A stretch of DNA of 64,000 nt from the NCBI GenBank assembly GCA_038330145.1, contig JBBQNR010000006.1:2773-66772 (forward strand). The letters are read 5' to 3'. Of the stretch, positions 3,293 to 64,000 are shown in pieces (position 1 is the first letter of the stretch; each line of letters begins with the position of its first letter). Both the position numbers and the translations under genes were made by a program. The stretch comes from Solirubrobacterales bacterium. GTDB lineage: Bacteria > Actinomycetota > Thermoleophilia > Solirubrobacterales > JBBDJG01. The notes beneath the pieces are model-generated. The model saw only the letters and a program-made list of their open reading frames with translations, was not told the origin of the DNA and searched no databases.

Positions 3293-5464
3293 TCAAACCG
3301 CCGGCTCGTTCATCAGCTGCTTCTGATATTCGAGCGCTGGCTCGTCGCCCGGAGTGCGGCGGGTCCAGGTGCCGTCGCCGTCGAGAGCCCACGACGAGAC
3401 GTTGTCCGAGAGCGCGAGCTCGAGCAGGAACCGGAGCTGGCGCTTGAGGTCATCCGAGCTGATCGTCGCCAGCGCCTCGACGCGTCCGTCGAGGTTGCGC
3501 TGCATCATGTCGGGGCTGCCGAAGTAGAACTCCTCGTCGCCGCCGTTCTGGAAGTAGAAGATGCGTGAGTGCTCCAGGAAGCGGCCAAGAATGCTGCGCA
3601 CCCTGATGTTCTTGCTCAACTTCTTGATTCCCGGGCGCAGCACGCAGATGCTCCGCACGAGCAGGTCCACCTTCACGCCCCGCTGCGATGCACGGTAGAG
3701 CGCGTCGACGATCGCCGGGTCGCCGAGGTTGTTGAGCTTCATCACGATCCGGCCCGGCTGCTCCGCCGTGCTGAGCGCGATCTCGCGCTCGATCATCCCG
3801 ATCATGCGGTCCCTCATGCCGAGCGGGGCCACGATCAGCGACTCGTACTCCCTCTTGCGCGAGAAGCCCGTGATGAAGTTGAACAGGTGGCTGACCTCGG
3901 AGCCGAGGCCCTCGTCGGCCGTCAGCAGGCCGATGTCCTCATAGAGGCGGGCGGTGATCGGGTTGTAGTTGCCCGTGCCGACGTGGACGTAGCGCCGCAG
4001 CTCGCTTCCCTCCCGGCGCACGACCAGGCACAGCTTGCAGTGGGTCTTCAGGCCCGCCAGCCCGTAGACGACGTGGCAGCCCGCCTGCTCCAGCGTTCGC
4101 GCCCAGGTGATGTTGGCGCTCTCGTCGAATCGCGCCTTCAACTCCACCAGCACGACGACCTGCTTACCCCGCTCCGCCGCCTCGATCAGGGCGTTCACGA
4201 TCGGGCTGCCGGAGGTGCGGTAAAGGGTCTGCTTGATCGCCAGCACATCGGGATCCGCGGCGGCCTGCTCCACGAAACGTTGCACGCTGGTGGTAAAGGA
4301 CTCGTACGGATGGTGGACGAGCACGTCGCGATCGTGCAGCAGCTCGAACACGTCCATGTCCTCGTCGGTCAGGGCCAGGTCCGGATGGGTGAGGGGGACG
4401 AAAGGAGGGTCCTTGAGGTCCGGCCGGTTCAGCGCATGAAGGGTCCACAGTCCGGAGAGGTCGAGCGGGCCGGGGAGCCGGGTGACGTCGGCGTCCGCCA
4501 GCTCGAGCTCGCTCATCAGCAGCTCCAGCACGTGCTCCGGCATGTTGCGTTCCACCTCGAGGCGGACCGCGGGGCTGAAGCGCTTGCGGCTCAGCTCCTC
4601 CTCCAGGGCCTCCATCAGGTCTGCGGCGCCGTCGTTGATCTCGAGGTCGGCGTTGCGGGTGACCCGGAAGGTGTGGTGCTCTACGACGTCCATGCCGGGG
4701 AAGAGCTGGTGCAGGTTGGCCGCGATCAGGTCCTCCAGCGGCACGTACGCTCGCCCTTCCGCGAACGCCACGAAGCGGGGCAGCGAAGGGGGCACCTTGA
4801 CACGCGCGAAGTGGATGCGCCCGCCCTCCGCGTCGCGAACCAGAACAGCCAGGTTGAGCGACAGGTTGGAGATGAACGGGAACGGCCGTCCGGAATCGAC
4901 GGCGAGCGGAGTCAGCACCGGAAACAGCTCATCGGTGAAGACCTCGTTCAATTCGTCGCGCTGCGCCTCGGTGAGGTCCTCCCAACGCTTGATCTCGATG
5001 CCGGCCCGGGCCAGCTCGGGCATCACGTCGTCGATGAACAGGCTCGCGTGGCGCTGCGCGAGCGGCTCCACCTTGGCCGCGATCGCCGCCAGCTGCTCCG
5101 TCGGAGTGAGCCCGTCGGCGGACTTGCTGACGAGCCCCGCCTCGACCTGTCGCTTGAGGCCGGCCACGCGCACCATGTGGAACTCGTCGAGGTTGCTGGC
5201 GAAGATGGCGAGGAACTTCGCGCGCTCCAGCACCGGCGCGTCGACCTCCTCTGCAAGCGCAAGCACGCGCGCGTTGAAGTCGAGCGACGACAGCTCCCGG
5301 TTCAGGAATCGGTCGGCTGAGCGGGCGGTCGGTTGAGGGGCGGCCTCCGGGTGGCCCGGCGGCGCAGCGATGGGTCCGCTCTTCCCGGCCGCTGCTTTCT
5401 GCTCCGCCACCGATCCCCGCCCGGCGCCCTGCCTCTGGCTGGTGGGCTGCGCTGACAAGTCCAA
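3293..5464 (-). CDS. ppk1: Polyphosphate kinase 1
   Basis: FLNRELSSLDFNARVL, SNLDEF, HHPYESF, ELKARFDE, KTHCK, GTGNYN, GRFLEHSR; exact start uncertain (TTG at 5464 or a downstream GTG). Confidence 0.96.
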   Translation of the reverse strand: MDLSAQPTSQRQGAGRGSVAEQKAAAGKSGPIAAPPGHPEAAPQPTARSADRFLNRELSSLDFNARVLALAEEVDAPVLERAKFLAIFASNLDEFHMVRVAGLKRQVEAGLVSKSADGLTPTEQLAAIAAKVEPLAQRHASLFIDDVMPELARAGIEIKRWEDLTEAQRDELNEVFTDELFPVLTPLAVDSGRPFPFISNLSLNLAVLVRDAEGGRIHFARVKVPPSLPRFVAFAEGRAYVPLEDLIAANLHQLFPGMDVVEHHTFRVTRNADLEINDGAADLMEALEEELSRKRFSPAVRLEVERNMPEHVLELLMSELELADADVTRLPGPLDLSGLWTLHALNRPDLKDPPFVPLTHPDLALTDEDMDVFELLHDRDVLVHHPYESFTTSVQRFVEQAAADPDVLAIKQTLYRTSGSPIVNALIEAAERGKQVVVLVELKARFDESANITWARTLEQAGCHVVYGLAGLKTHCKLCLVVRREGSELRRYVHVGTGNYNPITARLYEDIGLLTADEGLGSEVSHLFNFITGFSRKREYESLIVAPLGMRDRMIGMIEREIALSTAEQPGRIVMKLNNLGDPAIVDALYRASQRGVKVDLLVRSICVLRPGIKKLSKNIRVRSILGRFLEHSRIFYFQNGGDEEFYFGSPDMMQRNLDGRVEALATISSDDLKRQLRFLLELALSDNVSSWALDGDGTWTRRTPGDEPALEYQKQLMNEPAV

Positions 5465-5572: not shown

Positions 5573-6400
5573 ATCGCCAAGCCAGAAACCGGCCCAGAAC
5601 GCCCCACCGTCGCCGAGCTGGCGGGCGCCGCTCGCATCAGCGCGCCCACACGCGGCAACCGCAGGCTGGAGTCACTGCTCGAGGCGGCCAACTCGGACGA
5701 CCAGCTCAAGGGATGGTGGTACGTCGCCCAGGTCAACGCGGACCGTCTGGGCATGTCCGACCACTCCTGGGTACACGTTCAGATCGTCGTCAACATCGCG
5801 CTGCGGTTGCTTCGGCTGCTTCAGCGCAGGGGTGTTGAGACCTCGATGGTGACCGACCACGGCATGAAGCAACGCGACGCCGAGGTCGTCGTGGCGGCAG
5901 CAGCACTGCTGCACGACACCGGCATGTCGATCCATCGCGTGGACCACGAGGCCTACAGCCTCTTCCTCGCGGCTGCCAAGCTCGACCAGCTGCTCGCTGA
6001 GTGCTATACGGAGCCGGTGCGGTCGGTGGTGGCATCGGAGGTGCTGCACGCGGTCATCGCGCACCGTCGCCGCGGTGAGCCAATCACGATCGAGGCGGGC
6101 GTGGTTCGCGTGGCGGATGCGCTGGACATGGCCGAGGGTCGCTCACGCGTTCCCTTTGAGAGCGGTCGACAGAACATTCACTCGCTGTCCGCCGCCGCCA
6201 TCGAGAAGGTGCGAATCGAACCCGGTGAGGAGCGCGCCGTGCAGGTGGAGATCGACATGACCAACTCGGCCGGCATATTCCAGGTCGACGAGCTGCTGGC
6301 GACCAAGCTGCGAGGGTCAGGCCTCGAGGAGCACATCGAGGTGGTGGCCCGGATCGAGTCCGAGCACGAGAAGCGGCTGCTGCCCGTCTTCAGGCTGTAG
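5573..6400 (+). CDS. HD-domain phosphohydrolase
   Basis: DHSWVH, LLHDTG, VADALD motifs; frame open from the TAG at 5561, first ATG only at 5753; 5573 (ATC) is an inferred start. Confidence 0.8.
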   Translation: MAKPETGPERPTVAELAGAARISAPTRGNRRLESLLEAANSDDQLKGWWYVAQVNADRLGMSDHSWVHVQIVVNIALRLLRLLQRRGVETSMVTDHGMKQRDAEVVVAAAALLHDTGMSIHRVDHEAYSLFLAAAKLDQLLAECYTEPVRSVVASEVLHAVIAHRRRGEPITIEAGVVRVADALDMAEGRSRVPFESGRQNIHSLSAAAIEKVRIEPGEERAVQVEIDMTNSAGIFQVDELLATKLRGSGLEEHIEVVARIESEHEKRLLPVFRL

Positions 6401-56813: not shown

Positions 56814-58064
56814 CTAGGCCGCCAATCCAAGCTCGACACGCGAGTCAGCCGTTGCATCGTTTTGCATACGGCCTGTTGCCCCCGCGTTGCCCCGAGAGGG
56901 TTCCAGCGGCTCGCCGATATCGCCATCGAGCAAATGGACGTATGCGTCGAGGGTGAAGCTCGGCGAGTGGTGGCCGAGCCACCGCTGGACTTGCACCACG
57001 TTGCGGCCCTCCGCGAACAGTCGCGAGGCGACCGTATGGCGGAATGTGTGGAACCCCGCCCACTCGACGCCAGCCTCTTCGCAGGCTGGCGAGAGTACCC
57101 GCCGGTGGACGTTGTCGGGGTCTAGAACGGTCCCAACCCCGGTCGTGAACACAAGCGCGTCCGGCCGCCTGGCTTGCGCTCTGAGGCGATCGGCCAGCCA
57201 GACCGGGATAGGAACGTCCCGACGCGCATAGCGGGACTTCAGCGGGCCGATCACGAGTCCGGCCTTGTGCTGTCGGCGCACGCGCTGGCGCACTTTGACG
57301 TATGGGTTCGCACCGTCGAGCGCCAGGTGGCGGTCCTCGAAGGCCAGCAGCTCCGAGCGTCGTACACCCGTGGCCGCCAGTAGCTCGAACATCAGCCGGT
57401 AATCGGAATGCACGAGCTTGACCACCATTTCCATTAGCGGCTCGCCCTGGTCGTCAGTAGCAAACGGCCGGGCACGTTCTTCATCGTTGACGATTTGCTC
57501 TCGGTAGGGCAGGGTTGCCTCGCTGGTCGGATCGTGGCGAATCAGCCCTTCTCGCCGTGCCGTTGCCAAGCAGGCCGACAGCGGCTTGAATGCGTTGCGG
57601 ATTGACGAGTCCGAGAGTGTGCGGCCCTTGTGCCCGTTCGCTGGCTGCTTCGCGAGCCAGCCGATGTAGTTAGCCACTATGCGCGGGGTCAGCTCGGCGA
57701 GCCGCAGCCCCGGCGGGAAGTGGCGCAGCACGTACCGATTCAGCAACCGGCGGTAGTCGTCGCGCGTCTCTTCGCGAAAGCCCCGGCGGCCGGTACCTTG
57801 ATAGCGGTCGATCCACTCGAGCGCATACTCGTGCAGCGTTAAGCGAGTCGCAGCGGTGAACTCTCCCCGCGCAGCGTCGGCCTCGTTGATTCGCTTGGCC
57901 TCGCGAGCCTCGGCGAGCGTGCGATGCGTTCCCTTGTGCTGACGGCCTCGCGCTCGCCACGTAGAAACGTAGGAGCAACTACAGCGCCCCTTACCATCGC
58001 AGCCCTTGACGTGCCGTCGGAAGATGCCAGGAGCACCCTCCACCGGCGTTAGCTTGGCGGCCAT
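56814..58064 (-). CDS. Tyrosine recombinase / phage integrase
   Basis: TGVRRSEL, KSR, HTFRH, LGHH, DAYVH catalytic set; N-terminal arm-binding region (TLAEAREAK). Confidence 0.93.
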   Translation of the reverse strand: MAAKLTPVEGAPGIFRRHVKGCDGKGRCSCSYVSTWRARGRQHKGTHRTLAEAREAKRINEADAARGEFTAATRLTLHEYALEWIDRYQGTGRRGFREETRDDYRRLLNRYVLRHFPPGLRLAELTPRIVANYIGWLAKQPANGHKGRTLSDSSIRNAFKPLSACLATARREGLIRHDPTSEATLPYREQIVNDEERARPFATDDQGEPLMEMVVKLVHSDYRLMFELLAATGVRRSELLAFEDRHLALDGANPYVKVRQRVRRQHKAGLVIGPLKSRYARRDVPIPVWLADRLRAQARRPDALVFTTGVGTVLDPDNVHRRVLSPACEEAGVEWAGFHTFRHTVASRLFAEGRNVVQVQRWLGHHSPSFTLDAYVHLLDGDIGEPLEPSRGNAGATGRMQNDATADSRVELGLAA

Positions 58065-58311
58065 CAGGGCCGCACCGCAGTTCTTACTTCGGCCATCAAG
58101 GCTCCCTTCGTTGTTGGTCCGATGGACCGAAGGGACGGGCTGCGGCGGCGGATAATCTTCCCGCTGCGCCGAAGGCTCGCCCTTCGGTGCCAGCCCCGGG
58201 GTGTTAGCGCACCGCCGGGGCATTTATTTTGTGGTTGATCCTACCGGCCCCTGGACTCTCAATCCAGACCCCTGTTAGGTTGGCTTGGTCAAGGATTGAA
58301 AGGGGACCGCA

Positions 58312-59448
58312 ATGTCCGTTAGTCAGGTAGCTCGGGGAACCGCAGTGGCTGCTGCGTTGGCCACGTTCATTGTGCTGGGCATGGCGCCTGGGGCTCAGGC
58401 GGCATTTCCAGGTGCGAACGGCAAGATCGCTTTCGAGCTCGGCGAGAAGGGTCTCTTTACCGTCAATCCTGACGGCACGGACCAGGAGCTCATCGCGGCT
58501 GGCGGCGACCCTGCCTGGTCGCCCGACGGGACGCGGATCGCGGCAGACGGAGCCGTGATGACTCCGAGCGGTTCGCTCCTGAGCACTTTTCAAGGTGCGA
58601 ACCCGTCTTGGTCGCCCGACGGAACGAGGCTCGTCTATGAGGTCAGTGTCCGACCGCCGGACCCTCCGCGCCCCGCACCCTTCATCGACCTTGTCACTTC
58701 CGAACCCGATGGAGCGGCCCCGTTCCGACTGACCACCGACGGCGAGCAGGGTGCCGCGAATCTCTTTCCCGCTTGGTCCCCTGACGGCTCGAGAATTGCA
58801 TTCGACTACGTTGCGCCTCCTTTCGGAGGCATAGGGACGTACACCATCAGACCTGACGGATCTGACAGGACACGTATTACGCCGGGGGGTCATCCCGACT
58901 GGTCTCCGGATGGACGTTTCATTGTGTTCGCCGGTGGCTACATCGCCAACGCCGATGGAAGCGGCGTCATACGGCAGATCAACCCACTCGGAGAGATGTT
59001 GTTTCCACGATTTTCCCCGGACGGCCGTTGGCTGGTGTTTTCGGCTCATGCTCCAGCGGCCGGACTCACCGTTTGGATCGTGTCGGCTGAGGACGGATCG
59101 GGTCTCCGGCGCCTGACGCCTGATGAGACATCGCAAGATATTCCGAGGGCGGACTGGCAGCCGCTGCCCCTCGGCCCCTCTGATGGCGACGGCGATGGAA
59201 TTCCGGACGCAAGCGACAACTGCTCCACCACGTCCAACCCAGACCAGAAGGACAGCGACGGGGATGGAGCAGGTGATGTGTGCGATGCCACTCCGTTCCC
59301 TGGGCCGCAACGAAGCGATTACAAGAACGCGGCGCAGTTCTGCAAGGCCGAGGCGGACTTCCTTGGAGACACACCGTTCCGTCAGAAGTACGGCACGAAT
59401 GGGAATGGCGTTAACGCTCATGGCAAGTGCGTGAGCCAGAGCAGGTAG
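58312..59448 (+). CDS. Secreted TolB/PD40-repeat protein with thrombospondin type-3 repeats
   Basis: AFPGANGKIAF, repeated PAWSPDG, DGDGIPDASDNC...DGDGAGDVCD, C-terminal YKNAAQFCKAE...HGKCVS. Confidence 0.88.
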   Translation: MSVSQVARGTAVAAALATFIVLGMAPGAQAAFPGANGKIAFELGEKGLFTVNPDGTDQELIAAGGDPAWSPDGTRIAADGAVMTPSGSLLSTFQGANPSWSPDGTRLVYEVSVRPPDPPRPAPFIDLVTSEPDGAAPFRLTTDGEQGAANLFPAWSPDGSRIAFDYVAPPFGGIGTYTIRPDGSDRTRITPGGHPDWSPDGRFIVFAGGYIANADGSGVIRQINPLGEMLFPRFSPDGRWLVFSAHAPAAGLTVWIVSAEDGSGLRRLTPDETSQDIPRADWQPLPLGPSDGDGDGIPDASDNCSTTSNPDQKDSDGDGAGDVCDATPFPGPQRSDYKNAAQFCKAEADFLGDTPFRQKYGTNGNGVNAHGKCVSQSR

Positions 59449-59452
59449 CGAA

Positions 59453-60475
59453 TTGGTGGTTCGGAAGCTGACGGCCACGATTATCTGCATCGCCAGTTTG
59501 GGGCTCACTGCTCCAGCGGTGTCTTTTGCCGCTCGCTGTCCTGACGATCGTTACGACCATGCGGCGGCGGCGGCATACGTCCTTGGGGGCGTGGCCCCAC
59601 TGATCGCCACCGCCTTCGACGTTAGGTGGAACTTCCTTCTGCCCGGCTTCAGTTCCCCCAGCCTGTCCGAATCGAACCTCCGAGTGTCCATTCAAGCCGC
59701 AACCGCGACCCCTATCAGCCATCCTTACAGCGGCACAGGCGGGGAAGTGATCTTCCGGTTCGAGCCTGGCGACGGCCCCGCGTTGGTCTCCGCACAGTGG
59801 GACGTCAGCATCGACCCCTACTCCCAAGCCCCACTTTCGTGCGACTCGTCCACGAGCAAGGTCGTTAGTCCAATGCCGCCGGACCCTGCGGAAGCTCCAC
59901 CGACTGGGCCACCAACACTTGACCCGGTCTGGGTTGACCGCAGCGCGAGAAGGGCACAGGAGGTCAACTGGGATTTCAATATCACGGACAGCCCTCCCGG
60001 CTCCCTCGCAGTTACGGTCTGGGCAAAGGGGGTCCGGGCACGCGTTGAGTCCCAAAGCGATGAGACGCCTTTTCTCTGGGATGGCGGATCGGTCAGACGT
60101 CGCGGCCGGTTTGTGTTGTTGCCAACCATCGACCGGGACAATTACACGGCACACGTTACGTTCCGATCGCTTAGGAAGCGGACTGGCAATAAGAAGTACT
60201 TCTATCGAGCGGCTCTCGACGGGAAGGTTCTCAAGAGAGGAAGCTTTCGTGTACGGACTCGATTCCATCGTCGTATCCGTGGCTTCACGATTCCTGGTGA
60301 CGCACCTAGAAAGGTTTGGGAAGGAAGTGACCAGTTCTTTAACTATTGCTTGAAGAAAAACCGGGAGATCTGGAGTCAGAACGGACGGCTGTATTGCTGG
60401 TGGGGAGGAACAGCTGACCTGCATTGGCGAGGCCGCTCCGCGTATACGAGTGTCAGCATCCGGTTGTTGCACTAG
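59453..60475 (+). CDS. Secreted hypothetical protein
   Basis: Signal peptide; 340-aa ORF with codon usage unlike host genes. Confidence 0.6.
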   Translation: MVVRKLTATIICIASLGLTAPAVSFAARCPDDRYDHAAAAAYVLGGVAPLIATAFDVRWNFLLPGFSSPSLSESNLRVSIQAATATPISHPYSGTGGEVIFRFEPGDGPALVSAQWDVSIDPYSQAPLSCDSSTSKVVSPMPPDPAEAPPTGPPTLDPVWVDRSARRAQEVNWDFNITDSPPGSLAVTVWAKGVRARVESQSDETPFLWDGGSVRRRGRFVLLPTIDRDNYTAHVTFRSLRKRTGNKKYFYRAALDGKVLKRGSFRVRTRFHRRIRGFTIPGDAPRKVWEGSDQFFNYCLKKNREIWSQNGRLYCWWGGTADLHWRGRSAYTSVSIRLLH

Positions 60476-60502
60476 CGGCAACCCCCCTTACTGGCGAGCG
60501 GC

Positions 60503-60952
60503 TCATTTGCCGCCCTCGGCGTCGACGGCCAGGAGGCGGCGGCGGGAACGGCTTCTGCTGCTGGCGGCCGGTTGCTCAACAGCCTCACCGGGCTTTGCGA
60601 TCCGCCAGCGAAGGTTGCGCTTGCCCTTCGGAGTCAATCCGAGCGTATCCATGCGGAGTCTGATCTCCCCGGCAAGCGAGCCAGTCGGCTGGCGGTCGAA
60701 TAGGTCGACCAGCCGCAGCGTGTCGATCGCAAACGCCACGTCGCCCGAACTCCACCGGGTATTCGCCGGGTCACGGCACCATGCATCCCAATGCGCTTGC
60801 GCACGCTGCGACCACTCGCCTTCGCCGCCGCGCGGGGGAAGCGGCCGAGCAACGGGTTGTTCGAGCGGCAGCAGGTCGATCCATTCGCCGCCCGCTGGCG
60901 TGTTGTGACGGCGGCGGGCATTCCGGTCTTTCGGAGGCGGTCCAGGGGTCAC
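60503..60952 (-). CDS. Phage terminase small subunit-like protein
   Basis: PGPPPK...RRRHN, W...W...W core, GEIRLRMDTLGLTPKGKRNLRW; GGAGG before the GTG. Confidence 0.72.
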   Translation of the reverse strand: MTPGPPPKDRNARRRHNTPAGGEWIDLLPLEQPVARPLPPRGGEGEWSQRAQAHWDAWCRDPANTRWSSGDVAFAIDTLRLVDLFDRQPTGSLAGEIRLRMDTLGLTPKGKRNLRWRIAKPGEAVEQPAASSRSRSRRRLLAVDAEGGK

Positions 60953-60984
60953 GTCTTCGCCTCCTGCGGGATACTGCGCGGGCG

Positions 60985-61386
60985 ATGAGACCGAAGGTAT
61001 CGATCGTCGGCCAGGAGGCCGATACCGTGCGCATCGAGCGGCCCGATGGCAAGGCCGTTGACTGTTACTGGCGGAGCGACGGCAAGTTTGTCGTCTACGA
61101 CATGCGGACGCAGAAAAGGCTCGCCGAGATTGAAGTTGATACGGGCCAGCCTTCCGCGAAGTCGAAGGGGACGGTGGCAATGCCAGGCCACGACGTCCTC
61201 GTCGTCCCGCCGACGCGCTCCCGCACCGGCAAGCTGCTCGTCAACTGGTCGAAAACGCACGCGCTCGACTGCAAATGGGCGCTCGGCTACCAGCACAACC
61301 TCCCGTATGGGCCGTACACCCGGATGCCCGCGTCGGAGGTGCCCGCGCATGTGGGGGGTTGCGCCCGTTGCGGAGGTGGGCGATGA
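60985..61386 (+). CDS. Hypothetical cargo protein (C-terminal CxxC)
   Basis: Begins at the ATG of the left box; HALDC...CARC possible zinc ligands. Confidence 0.55.
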   Translation: MRPKVSIVGQEADTVRIERPDGKAVDCYWRSDGKFVVYDMRTQKRLAEIEVDTGQPSAKSKGTVAMPGHDVLVVPPTRSRTGKLLVNWSKTHALDCKWALGYQHNLPYGPYTRMPASEVPAHVGGCARCGGGR

Positions 61387-61423
61387 GAGTCGTAACGCAC
61401 GAACGAGGAAGAGTGTCCGGTTA

Positions 61424-61651
61424 ATGGGCATTCTGCGAGGAATCTTGAGAGGCATTGAGTGGACCGCGAGGGAGGTGCAGGAAAGCCGCTATAGACAAAA
61501 CCTGACCCCTCTCGAATACGACAAGCTTCAGCGGTTGAGGAGGTTGGGGGGAAAGGCGACGCCGAAGGAAAGGGCCGAGGTGAACAGGCTTATCCACAAA
61601 GCACGCGTGAAGGCCAAATATCGCTCGCGAAACCGCCCTCGAAGCCGCTGA
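61424..61651 (+). CDS. Small basic hypothetical cargo protein
   Basis: GAGGAAG upstream; last codons and stop are supplied by the right box. Confidence 0.45.
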   Translation: MGILRGILRGIEWTAREVQESRYRQNLTPLEYDKLQRLRRLGGKATPKERAEVNRLIHKARVKAKYRSRNRPRSR

Positions 61652-61813
61652 CCTGTTGGCAGCAAGACGCTCACGCCGAATCCTCGTAACCCGTACATAA
61701 GGTGAGCGGCAGCCCTCGACGGTCCCGATGTGAGCAGCACCTGGGGCCATCCCCACCCCGTGGGCCATAGCGCCCTGCGCAGGTCCCGTGGTCGTCAGGC
61801 GGCGCCTCTTGCG

Positions 61814-62254
61814 CCTGCGGGATACTGCGCGGGCGATGTCGCAGGAGAACGTGGAGTTGGTGCGCCGGGGGATCGAAGCGTGGAACAGAGGCGACGTGGA
61901 CGCCATACTGGCCATTTTTCATCGCGACCTCGAGTATGTGACTACGGGTTTGTTTCCCGGCCTTGATCCCGTCTATCACGGCCACGACGGCTTCAAAAGG
62001 TTCTGGCAAGACTTCCGAGAGACCTGGGAGTCGCTCTCGATCGAGGTTCACGAGCTGCGTGACGCTGGCGAGCGAGTCCTCTCTCACCTCACGTTCAACG
62101 CTCGCGGGCGCGATGGCTTGGCCGTGCGCCGACAGGTGGCCAGCGTCGCGACTATCCGAGACGGCTTGGTGGTGCGTCACGAGAACTACGGGAATTGGAC
62201 AACAGCCCTCGAAGCCGTGGGCCTGTCGGAGCAAGACGCTCACGCCGACTCCTG
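61814..62254 (+). mobile_element. Cassette 2: same boxes, CCTG duplicated, SnoaL cargo
   Basis: cctg at 61814-61817 and 62251-62254; inserted opposite to the phage backbone. Confidence 0.7.
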
Positions 62255-62255
62255 A
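61836..62255 (+). CDS. SnoaL-like (NTF2-fold) protein, MSQENVE type
   Basis: MSQENVELVRRGIEAWNRGD, YHGHDG, ALEAVGLSEQDAHADS. Confidence 0.9.
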   Translation: MSQENVELVRRGIEAWNRGDVDAILAIFHRDLEYVTTGLFPGLDPVYHGHDGFKRFWQDFRETWESLSIEVHELRDAGERVLSHLTFNARGRDGLAVRRQVASVATIRDGLVVRHENYGNWTTALEAVGLSEQDAHADS

Positions 62256-62320
62256 TTCCGGTTCCGTTCCCTGCCGCGCTGAGCCTCGGCCTGAGACTTG
62301 CGAGCGTGCGCGCTCGACGG

Positions 62321-63026
62321 TCATGGCTGCTCCTCGACCAACATCAGCAGCGCCACCGTCAACGCGTCGGGGTCGCGCTCCACCGGACTGTTCGGTTGCA
62401 GGCTCGTGATTGACGCCTGATAGGCCGCAGCCTTCTCCTGCCTACGGGCTAGGCGACCGGGGTTCGGCGGGCGGTAGTCCCAACTTGACGGGTCGCCGTG
62501 GAAGTTGCGAAGGGCACGCAGCAGCACGCGGTCGACTTCGAGTCCTGTGAACTCGCCTCGCAGCTTGTCGACCAGCTTGCGGATCGCGTCAGCGTGGCCC
62601 TGGCCTCGCTGCTCGACATCGGCCACCCACTCGCCGTAGTGCTCGCGCATGGCCTCGCCTTGTGCATAGACCGCAGTTCGCACGTTCTCGGCGGCCGCCT
62701 GCTCGAGTCGGTTGGCCTCCCCCAGCGCCTTGTGTGCTGCCGGGTTCGGTCGGCTCTGGCGGACCCTCGTTCACGTCGAGGGCCTTCGCGTCGGCTTGCA
62801 GGTCATGTGCCGGGGCTGCCTTGTGCGCCTCGTGGGCCTCGTGAAGAGCGGCCTTCGCTTGCTGGTGGGTCTCCCAGGCTGCGCGAGTCTTGGCCGCCGC
62901 TTCGCTTACCGGCTTCGGCATCCCCGAAACGTCGGGGATCAGCAGCCCTTCCGATAGACGATCCAGCACTCGGATTCGCTTCGGCCTCGGCAGCGTGGCG
63001 GGTGTGGCTTCTGTGGTCGTGTTCAT
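62321..63026 (-). pseudogene. Helical phage protein split by a single frameshift
   Basis: ORF 63026-62589 continues plausibly into ORF 62683-62321 if one base is skipped near 62741 (EP/AAHKALGEANRLEQ). Confidence 0.55.
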
Positions 63027-63397
63027 GATCGCCTCCGTCGTCTAGTTGTGGCGATACCAGGGGCAGGCTCGCCATCGTCATTTCCGAAGATCCGTCGCGC
63101 GTGATCTTCGACCGACATCTCTTCAAGAGAAGGCTTGTCGGCCGGGTCGTCGTCGTCCTTCAGGCTCGCGGCGCGACTCACCGTGGCGCGGTACTCCCGG
63201 TATTCGTCCGTCTCGAACTGCGGCTCGGGGGCCTGCCGACCCTGGGCCTGTATGCGCTCGAAGTGTTCATCCGTGGTCAGCTCCTCCATCGTCTTGAACC
63301 GGCGCGGTGGCTCTCCGAGTTTCGCCTCGATCCGCCCGCGAATGGAGTGCTCCACATGGTTTAGGTGCTCCACATCGGTTAGGTGCTCGTCAGTCAT
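63023..63397 (-). CDS. Small acidic phage hypothetical protein
   Basis: AAGGA RBS before ATG 63397; ATGA overlap with the next gene; 18-nt tandem repeat near the start. Confidence 0.6.
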   Translation of the reverse strand: MTDEHLTDVEHLNHVEHSIRGRIEAKLGEPPRRFKTMEELTTDEHFERIQAQGRQAPEPQFETDEYREYRATVSRAASLKDDDDPADKPSLEEMSVEDHARRIFGNDDGEPAPGIATTRRRRRS

Positions 63398-63551
63398 AGC
63401 GTCCTTTCTGCTTGGCGTGGAAACGCGAGCGGGAGGCAGCCGCCTTTTAGGCCTCCCGCTCACGCGGCGGCGCGGCGGCTTTGTGGCGGCCAGCGCTCGC
63501 GCTCGCCGGGACAGGAGTGATCCCGGCGAAGTTGTCTAGGTAGCTGCCGAT

Positions 63552-63827
63552 TCACGACGGGCACCGTCCGCTGCCGCTTCGCACCCAATCGTCCAGCTCA
63601 CTACGTCGGAACAGCGTGCGGCTGCCGTCCTTGTGGAACGGGACTCGGCGTGCCGAAACGAGGCTGTAGATCCGCGAGGGTGTGCAGCGCAAGTGCTCGG
63701 CCGCTTCGGCAACGCTGAGCCAGGAATCTTGCGCGTGGCCGTTGCGCTCGGCAACCAGCTCGGCGGCACGCTCGGCGATTCGTTCCACGGCTTCAGGCGT
63801 CAGCTCGAATGTCAAAGGCTCGGTCAC
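63552..63827 (-). CDS. Excisionase-like HTH DNA-binding protein
   Basis: WLSVAEAAEHLRCTPSRIYSLV...GSRTLFRRSELDDW. Confidence 0.85.
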   Translation of the reverse strand: MTEPLTFELTPEAVERIAERAAELVAERNGHAQDSWLSVAEAAEHLRCTPSRIYSLVSARRVPFHKDGSRTLFRRSELDDWVRSGSGRCPS

Positions 63828-64000
63828 GTCGCTCGCCCCGTGCGGGGCCAACCCCAGCAGCGAGTGCACCGGTCGTCGTCGTCCTCGACGCGCGGTTCCG
63901 GGCAGTTGCAAACGGGCCTAGTAGGAACATCTCCCGTCGGGGACGCCCCACTGTCCCTACTGCTGTCACCGGAGCCTGAAGGGGGCTCTGCACGGCCATT

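Follow-up and report, generated by a model that had tools for sequence, protein, structure and literature searches.

The question raised by this locus is why two neighbouring gene units with unrelated interiors begin and end with nearly the same sequences. The units lie near the end of a 64,000-nucleotide stretch of a Solirubrobacterales bacterium (contig JBBQNR010000006.1 of assembly GCA_038330145.1), referred to here as the window; the assembly as a whole (the source genome) comprises 3,302,156 bases in 182 contigs with 67.7% G+C. A first-pass annotation had taken the units for non-autonomous mobile cassettes. Comparison of the window with the source genome, with related genomes and with metagenomic data shows that the shared ends, or boxes, are the conserved termini, 5' and 3', of SnoaL_2 gene units and form the two halves of one junction. 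The units most probably belong to a recombination-prone family of paralogs with a functional promoter, start and stop junction, with no trans-mobilised cassette and no dedicated recombinase, a reading held with some reserve.

The left box, the 25-mer CCTGCGGGATACTGCGCGGGCGATG, is present at 60963-60987 and 61814-61838, and a self-comparison of the window showed the two copies to be 100% identical. The right-hand repeat of ~54 nucleotides (nt) aligns in two pieces, 61631-61659 with 62201-62229 (83% identical) and 61661-61684 with 62230-62253 (96% identical); the pieces are offset by one base, and therefore a 1-nt indel lies between them. Across the 3.3-Mb assembly, the 21-nt left-box core is found without mismatch at the two window sites only, and at three further sites with one mismatch. 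The occurrence of the window repeats is far beyond chance expectation. The self-comparison displayed no terminal inverted repeats at the unit ends. Both repeats and the lack of inverted ends had been described correctly in the first-pass annotation, as had the unrelatedness of the interiors, which comprise a PF12680 gene in one unit and two open reading frames (ORFs) without a family in the other.

Unit 2 is an ordinary intact member of the SnoaL family. Its left box (61814-61838, + strand) carries GATACT at 61821-61826 and ATG at 61836-61838, and from this ATG runs an intact SnoaL_2 (NTF2-fold) gene of 139 amino acids (aa) (61836-62255, + strand). The protein scores 72.5 bits against PF12680 (cut-off 27, E 4.9e-20), which places it among the SnoaL_2/NTF2-like proteins, and shares 48% aa identity with its closest sampled relative. 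The gene ends in the right box (62201-62255, + strand), a coding tail ...ALEAVGLSEQDAHADS followed by TGA, which in arrays forms the first half of the long junction. Unit 1, on the other hand, is a SnoaL shell with its interior exchanged for two unrelated ORFs. Its left box (60963-60987, + strand) is likewise the 5' module of a SnoaL unit, with the -10-like GATACT at 60970-60975 and ATG at 60985-60987. ORF1 (60985-61386, + strand, 133 aa) starts at the box ATG as cargo in place of the SnoaL interior, and its coding signature is clear, as evident from the third-position G+C (GC3) of 0.80-0.90 in its frame. ORF2 (61427-61651, + strand, 74 aa) displays a weak coding signal and enters the right-box remnant in another frame. 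Neither ORF matched any family in Pfam, PHROGs or NCBIfam, SnoaL/NTF2 families included, and the SnoaL profile coverage of the unit 1 slot is 0.0. The remnant itself (61631-61684, + strand) is a degenerate SnoaL 3' tail with the 1-nt indel and a lost TGA (...TCCTCGTAA). It is followed by a spacer of 129 nt (61685-61813, + strand), the last ~14 nt of which (61800-61813) resemble a decayed right-box end in front of the left box of unit 2; BLAST matches in relatives start at window position 61800 and overlap the right-box matches.

The relation between the two boxes becomes clear in the tandem arrays of a clade of uncultured soil Solirubrobacterales, where the right box closing each unit abuts the left box that opens the following one. 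Together they make up a junction of ~52 nt, ...AGCAAGACGCTCACGCCGACTCCTGA-nn-CTGCGGGATACTGCGCGGGCGATG, present dozens of times per genome. This direct succession of the boxes (...GAGCAAGACGCTCACGCCGACTCCTGA-nn-CTGCGGGATACTGCGCGGGCGATGTCGCAGGAGAAC) is seen on contigs C60, C24 and C1 of the source genome and likewise in its relatives, and 77 of 87 unique contexts have a spacing of 8 nt between ...CCGACTCCT and GGGATACTG. There is also a short junction type, ...TCGGAG-TAG-GCG-ATG, which differs from the long type by a clean indel of ~44 nt. The source genome gave 47 tblastn matches to the SnoaL protein and 53 intact SnoaL domains, often in tandem (contigs C24, C60, C50, C1, C5, C40 and C66). A SnoaL N-terminus follows 154 of 184 left cores, and the slots, measured from each left box to the following right box, have length maxima at 1, 2, 3 and 4 gene lengths.

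Among 17 further genomes of the family, 16 contain matches to the boxes (15 of 16 if the unpublished G004, on which no other result here depends, is left out), in many cases dozens of them at 90-100% identity. G002, a closed genome of the same genus, contains 34 left and 27 right boxes at up to three mismatches, as compared to 1 and 0 for reversed-pattern controls, and has a tandem array of more than 25 SnoaL units. The exact junction pattern occurs in 47 stretches of a species-representative collection; 44 come from metagenome-assembled genomes (MAGs) labelled Solirubrobacterales, and the other three are labelled Ilumatobacteraceae, Mycobacteriales and Thermoleophilaceae, one each. A 299-kb contig labelled Ilumatobacteraceae (L033) bears an array of 12 intact SnoaL units with the same junction, and the location of this array on a contig of another actinobacterial class is either a binning error or a between-class transfer. 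Metagenome assemblies from soil and sediment gave a summed contig depth of ~46-2719 at the box regions (window 61738-61965 and 62194-62307) as compared to ~0-9 at the unique parts. Such an excess of depth at the boxes shows the junction to be very common in these habitats, at many loci and in many organisms. Contigs assembled from public runs, among which no RNA run was listed for the locus, break at the boxes and show tandem-type joints from other loci and organisms, and none spans unit 1; being assembled contigs, they say nothing on excision, circles or expression. The repeated boxes also explain the breaks in the present MAG assemblies.

The ends of these genes are conserved far beyond their interiors. 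The median pairwise identity of SnoaL interiors is 31% at the aa level, within and between genomes alike, and no within-genome pair of units reaches 85% aa identity once overlapping loci are set aside. At the ends even synonymous sites are fixed. In counts over paralogues, which are not independent of each other, the ALEA motif at the C-terminus has GAA for Glu in 151 of 160 genes (22% in the interiors of the same genes) and CTC for Leu in 150 of 160 (37% in interiors), Ser2 is TCG in 154 of 161 (21% in interiors), and Val6 is GTG in 138 and GTC in 10 genes, as compared to 34 and 46% in interiors. The fixation of synonymous sites therefore indicates a constraint on the nucleotides and not on the protein alone. 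The junction is also kept where it is non-coding, past the own stop of a gene (L011 8484-8433). The 52-nt long junction was found in 107 unique contexts from 16 genomes; nine of these genomes have at least 4 copies, and in 8 of the 9 the consensus is identical to that over all copies. Junction copies differ at 3.91 positions per 52 nt within a genome and at 4.46 between genomes (label permutation, p ~0.006). This pattern is that of purifying selection at the DNA level on a sequence element, with little genome-specific homogenisation.

As for the function under such selection, the left-box half of the junction carries GATACT 9 bases before the ATG and has no Shine-Dalgarno sequence. Leaderless promoters of actinobacteria have the form TANNNT shortly before the start codon, and the junction may accordingly be read as a promoter-plus-start module. 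In 15 of its 33 occurrences in the source genome, GGGATACT has an ORF of at least 80 aa starting 3-15 nt behind it, as compared to 3 of 33 in the reverse orientation. The upstream half ends in TGA, and therefore a stop-less upstream gene which reads into it gains a tail ...(E)QDAHADS; the odd '...QDAHADS' tails on unrelated proteins are explained as such read-through. A scan for intrinsic terminators in 60400-62700 gave no site. An RNA-structure reading was also considered, with a 7-bp left-box hairpin inside a CUCCUG/CAGGAG stem, and was rejected: the 5' arm varies freely, mismatches are uncompensated (72 of 184 at the outer pair, for example), and the outer stem displays no double changes. 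The fold energy of the junction lies close to that of shuffled sequences (z = -0.48), and Rfam gave no match.

The exchange of an interior is not confined to the window. The fetched loci and the source genome together provide 122 unique slots from a left to a right box. The SnoaL profile covers at least 80% of the slot in 94, 50-80% in 14, 20-50% in 4 and less than 20% in 10 of these. The four slots at 20-50% are frameshifted SnoaL genes, and one of those below 20% (L050) looks by eye like a decayed SnoaL gene, while 9 of the 122, window unit 1 among them, hold unrelated cargo. The family scan of cargo covered ten ORFs, of which seven come from these slots and three from sites in G002 that are not part of the slot count (L011 7016-7429, L011 9818-10432 and L018). 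None of the ten matched a SnoaL family and two exceeded the cut-off for other families, a Methyltransf_24 fragment and an Ion_trans_2 channel. A protein atlas gave scores of 0.80 only, to unnamed clusters, and NCBIfam gave nothing. Cargo starts exactly at the box ATG in window unit 1, L044 and L049, and ends in frame in the box tail in L049, L075 and L011 9818-10432. By a GC3 strand test, which is weak evidence, 10 of 12 top-scoring cargo ORFs point in the direction of the array and the other 2 cases are ambiguous. The borders of the cargo vary on both sides: on the left, 3, 9-10, 13, 24 or ~30 nt of SnoaL remnant persist, the border falling after the ATG in some cases and after ATGTCGCAG in others; on the right, the retained box ranges from the full 54 nt to ~10 nt. 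Two genera share an ABM-like cargo (72% nt identity), with a common left border (box + ATGTCGCAGGGATAG) and with differing right borders and SnoaL neighbours. A 4-codon mini-ORF, MSQG* (ATGTCGCAGGGATAG or ...GGTTAG), was observed directly behind the left box at L041 2990-3389, L073 ~1250-1650 and L040 (minus strand), followed by cargo with its own Shine-Dalgarno sequence.

The origin of unit 1 can be traced in part. Relatives of ORF1 were found in two places only, namely G013, a genome of a different genus (first 30 aa), and P0002, a metagenomic protein; ORF2 has no relatives in the 17 other genomes of the family. The G013 locus consists of a right-box/left-box junction, a 15-codon SnoaL stub, ~240 nt, and then GCGATG-AGACCGAAGG..., which is 96% identical to the start of window ORF1 over 83 nt before the two diverge. 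In the metagenomic protein of 99 aa, the N-terminal half of ORF1 runs into translated junction (...GLPEQDA...ERADTGRGMSQE...). GCGATG is present both at the left box and at the own start of ORF1. From an arrangement like that of G013, a deletion joining the two GCGATG motifs would give exactly the left border of the window and would bring ORF1 under the putative box promoter and ATG; the left junction of unit 1 thus probably arose by a microhomology deletion.

Turnover of whole units is suggested by the unit K8, an orthologue with 84% nt identity among the source genome, G002 and a third genome. Its homology begins ~15 nt before the ATG and ends ~30 nt past the stop, and in each of the three genomes the neighbours on either side are different ones. 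Three kinds of junction lie upstream of it, a box with a 57-nt spacer, a box with a 66-nt spacer, and the short junction. Units of the source genome often have their best matches in other genera and not in G002 of the same genus. In this comparison, for which most genomes were sampled in part only, clusters at 65% aa identity or more span two genome labels for 121 of 288 sampled units, an upper bound since 6 genomes carry two labels. The K8 borders and the patchy orthologues fit recombination in the shared ends, and also fit differential loss.

The search for machinery dedicated to moving the units came up empty. No recombinase lies near the arrays of the closed relative G002, in which the three PF00589 genes are 16, 22 and 96 kb from the nearest box. 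Y1 transposases (PF01797) gave no match in the two genomes searched. The IS110 family, as represented by DEDD PF01548, has no match in the source genome and three copies in G002 (99.8-100% identical), and was rejected as an agent, the flanks of these three copies being unrelated to the boxes. The largest array is flanked by ordinary chromosomal genes, for MOSC, DsbA-like, glycosylase, SDR, two-component, oxidoreductase and hydrolase proteins. The predicted circle junction GACTCCTGCGGGATACT does not occur in the source genome or in any of the fetched loci.

The observed anatomy, distribution, nucleotide-level constraint, recurrent foreign cargo and lack of nearby recombinases are best explained, with rather more than even probability, by the recombination-prone paralog family. 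Its junction would supply the stop codon (tail ...QDAHADS*), the -10-like GATACT and the ATG, and would be held by selection at the nucleotide level. Because the junction is repeated dozens of times, the arrays would turn over by whole units, through homologous recombination or gene conversion in the shared ends and occasional illegitimate or microhomology events, and the window units would be passengers of an integrase-bearing island, on the strand opposite to its genes. A number of observations weigh against this explanation. Concerted evolution is weak, the junctions within a genome being barely more alike than those between genomes, and the constraint on 52 contiguous bases is given no reason; moreover, most loci were fetched by a junction match, which biases the sample to consensus-like copies. 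A scan of the locus for sigma-70 consensus promoters gave no site, and the GATACT-ATG gap in the source genome peaks at 9 nt in the SnoaL family, longer than the 6-nt peak of other genes. Recombination in the boxes is deduced from homology borders, with no event observed. Finally, random decay predicts less order than is displayed by the 9 of 122 slots with foreign cargo; several cargo ORFs share the frame of the box ATG and TGA (L049, L075, L011 9818-10432), and one foreign cassette has the same left border in two genera. A one-off accident, in which the interior of a duplicated SnoaL gene was replaced to give unit 1 without any wider meaning, has very little probability. The degenerate right box of unit 1 (indel, lost stop), an ORF2 without relatives and a G013 arrangement suggestive of a simple deletion agree with it, but at least 8 other slots in other genomes have undergone a like replacement, and fragments of ORF1 abut SnoaL junctions in two further sources. 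Also very improbable is the model of the first-pass annotation, in which cassettes with fixed asymmetric ends and a CCT core form circles and are moved in trans by a site-specific enzyme of the IS110 or integron kind. Much of its description stands: the ends are asymmetric, the interiors are interchangeable in the descriptive sense of 9 of 122 slots, the MSQENVE... and ...DAHADS termini are conserved at the nucleotide level, and the left end looks like a promoter (GATACT) with an ATG that non-SnoaL ORFs use in unit 1, L044 and L049. The mobile-element part lacks support, and the refuting conditions set in the first-pass annotation itself already weaken it. The ends are not fixed, as cargo breakpoints differ on both sides from case to case, and they are not private to an element, as most of them (154 of 184 left cores) mark the ends of SnoaL paralogs. 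CCT is no boundary, for the right box continues into the left box in arrays and homology passes it; TCCT and CCTG, intrinsic to the boxes and present in all copies and all genomes, are therefore not target-site duplications. The units indeed encode no recombinase, but a tyrosine integrase lies 2.7 kb off (56814-58223) as part of an island. Movement in trans is made less likely by the missing circle junction, by the distant tyrosine recombinases and unrelated IS110 copies of G002 along with the absence of PF01797, by the housekeeping flanks of the largest array, and by the lack of any within-genome pair at 85% aa identity, so that there is no sign of recent copying.

Two intermediate explanations share parts of this evidence. 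The more probable of them, though still unlikely, is a homology-anchored capture platform, recombinase-independent and integron-like, whose invariant ends are kept as recombination anchors. A non-redundant, hypervariable SnoaL/NTF2 repertoire (at least 50 per genome) would swap units between arrays and genomes, and foreign ORFs would be captured and expressed from the junction promoter and ATG, with islands or phages as shuttles. Such a platform agrees with homology confined to single units whose neighbours differ between genomes, with patchy orthologues and best matches in other genera, and with the non-redundancy of units within a genome. It also agrees with the frequency of foreign cargo and its predominant co-orientation, with the shared left border (ATGTCGCAGGGATAG) of the ABM-like cargo among different SnoaL neighbours in two genera, and with the position of the window units on an integrase/TerS island unique among 121 genomes of the order. 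However, differential loss from a large ancestral array could give an equal pattern, a consensus that is identical across genera is what plain purifying selection would leave on a regulatory element, and the sampled loci showed neither an exchange event nor a donor-recipient pair nor a population variant. It is improbable that the junction of ~50-66 nt is itself a small insertion element, similar to MIRUs (mycobacterial repetitive elements) or MITEs, which would spread between genes and bring a stop, a promoter and a start with it. The clean indel of ~44 nt (TCGGAG-TAG-GCGATG vs TCGGAG-[44 nt]-GCGATG), the recurrence of the left border at TCGGAG, modules located in places between non-SnoaL genes, and solo half-modules on contigs C46, C12 and C85 of the source genome suggest such an element, and MIRUs likewise overlap the ends of flanking genes (PMC3184786). 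K8 has the short junction in one genome and a box in two, at sites which are not strictly orthologous since their neighbours differ. Against this, the module has neither terminal inverted repeats nor a target duplication, CCTG and TCCT belonging to every copy, and is nearly always tied to SnoaL; no Y1 transposase was found in either genome searched, the IS110 flanks in G002 are unrelated to the boxes, and the box hairpin lacks compensatory changes. The recombination-prone paralog family with its putative promoter, start and stop junction thus remains the explanation preferred here.

Several variants of the junction were observed besides the long and short types. A third type consists of a right box, a spacer of 57-72 nt (alike at two G002 sites) and then CCACGGGATACTG..., as at L011 9305-9374, L014 ~3815-3915 and contig C40 ~5800-5900 of the source genome. 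A leader variant, seen in 6 unique contexts (sites on C1 of the source genome at ~111,600-111,720, L057, L069, L040 and L030), has the box with ATGTCGCAGGAGAGGCCATGA (mini-ORF MSQERP*), followed by ~60-70 conserved nt ending GAGGGCGT-ATT-TCT-GAG-CAG-AAC-GTG. The SnoaL body appears to start at ATT behind this small upstream ORF, and the variant could be a regulatory leader or a small insertion. Boxes also occur singly in the source genome: a solo right box lies directly after the stop of an unrelated 335-aa gene (C46 19823-19873), a solo left box ~110 nt upstream of an unrelated gene, and a solo left-box core without an ORF behind it (C12 36242-36262, C85 ~6957). By eye, a solo right-box piece at C38 ~650-1010 lies between an apparent N-terminal fragment of an IS110 transposase and a tRNA-like end, and the SnoaL array at C50 ~1460-1500 begins just past an apparent tRNA 3' end (GGTTCGAATCC).

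The surroundings of the window units are those of an integrated element. A tyrosine integrase (56814-58223, - strand; PF00589, E 2.4e-14, with Phage_int_SAM_5) is an island gene outside the units, a phage terminase small subunit (TerS; 60503-60952, - strand; PF25673 Terminase_7, E 1.7e-19, phrog_226) precedes unit 1, and an HTH_17 excisionase-like gene (63552-63911, - strand; PF12728, E 1.9e-13, phrog_66) follows unit 2. Both units are on the + strand and the island genes on the - strand. The TerS gene abuts the first left box; it starts with GTG, and the GGAGG of its ribosome site, as read from the sequence, is the complement of 60960-64. The G+C content is lower, 0.545-0.63, at 58.2-60.5 kb. 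No relatives of TerS were found in 120 other genomes of the order or in viral contigs, and related prophages were dropped on this account as a source of an empty site; the left box has no exact match in viral contigs. Both units look like moron-type passengers of the island. No terminase large subunit was seen beside TerS in 56814-64000, a region which may be a decayed prophage or a satellite-like island, and the contig ends 148 bases past the window. The source genome has 15 PF00589 integrase matches (14 above cut-off) and the closed G002 has 3, an excess which suggests many integrated elements or mobile-element contigs binned into the MAG.

In these genomes of 3-4 Mb at least 50 genes are given to one small-protein family, in which no two copies within a genome are 85% or more identical while the ends are near-identical across genera. 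Such a combination is typical of repertoires under diversifying selection (immunity, binding and sensing proteins) and of cassette systems, and is found here without a recombinase. Should the junction prove to be both a portable promoter/start/stop module and an anchor for recombination, it would provide a simple route to build and reshuffle repertoires and to plug in foreign genes, and would also be a compact expression element for high-GC actinobacteria, with AGCAAGACGCTCACGCCGACTCC as its upstream half. Among the publications listed by full-text literature searches, none dealt with such arrays.

Among known systems, integron cassette arrays share with the present ones the single-gene units, the repeated junction, the unit as the grain of synteny, and unrelated genes in occasional slots. 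Unlike integrons, the arrays of G002 have no IntI-type integrase adjacent to them, ~90% of the units belong to one protein family, the cargo borders vary, and the junction holds a promoter-like element and a start codon; as compared to attC, it has neither a supported hairpin nor a GTT core. The Anaplasma msp2 and Neisseria pilS systems also have near-identical ends and divergent cores, presumably exchanged by homologous recombination, with silent donors and one expression site. The near-identical 5' and 3' ends around highly divergent interiors are common to both, whereas the SnoaL units are all complete genes, each with start signals of its own. As for IS110 and IS200-IS605 elements, no cognate transposase with ends matching the boxes was found in the two genomes searched; as for MITE- or MIRU-like repeats, the terminal inverted repeats and target duplications expected of them were not found. 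The window units resemble phage morons in lying between phage genes, on the opposite strand, in an integrase-bearing element; unlike morons, they belong to a chromosomal array family which is not phage-specific, and no terminator-like site accompanies them. The rAID-1 orphan immunity arrays of Bacteroidales (bioRxiv 10.1101/471110) comprise up to 31 genes with repetitive intergenic sequences 'reminiscent of integrons' and a conserved XerD-family recombinase at their head. They share with the SnoaL arrays (more than 25 units) the large number of diverged small genes and the repetitive sequences between them, and differ by the head recombinase, of which no counterpart was found here, and by the proteins, which here are SnoaL_2 with no immunity-family match. 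Mycobacterial MIRUs (PMC3184786) are elements of 40-100 bp between co-oriented genes, the ends of which overlap the flanking stop and start; they are dispersed between unrelated operon genes in variable tandem copies, whereas the SnoaL junction is present once per site and keeps to one gene family. Taken together, the arrays may be regarded as integron- or rAID-like in their layout and MIRU-like in the overlap of the junction with the gene ends.

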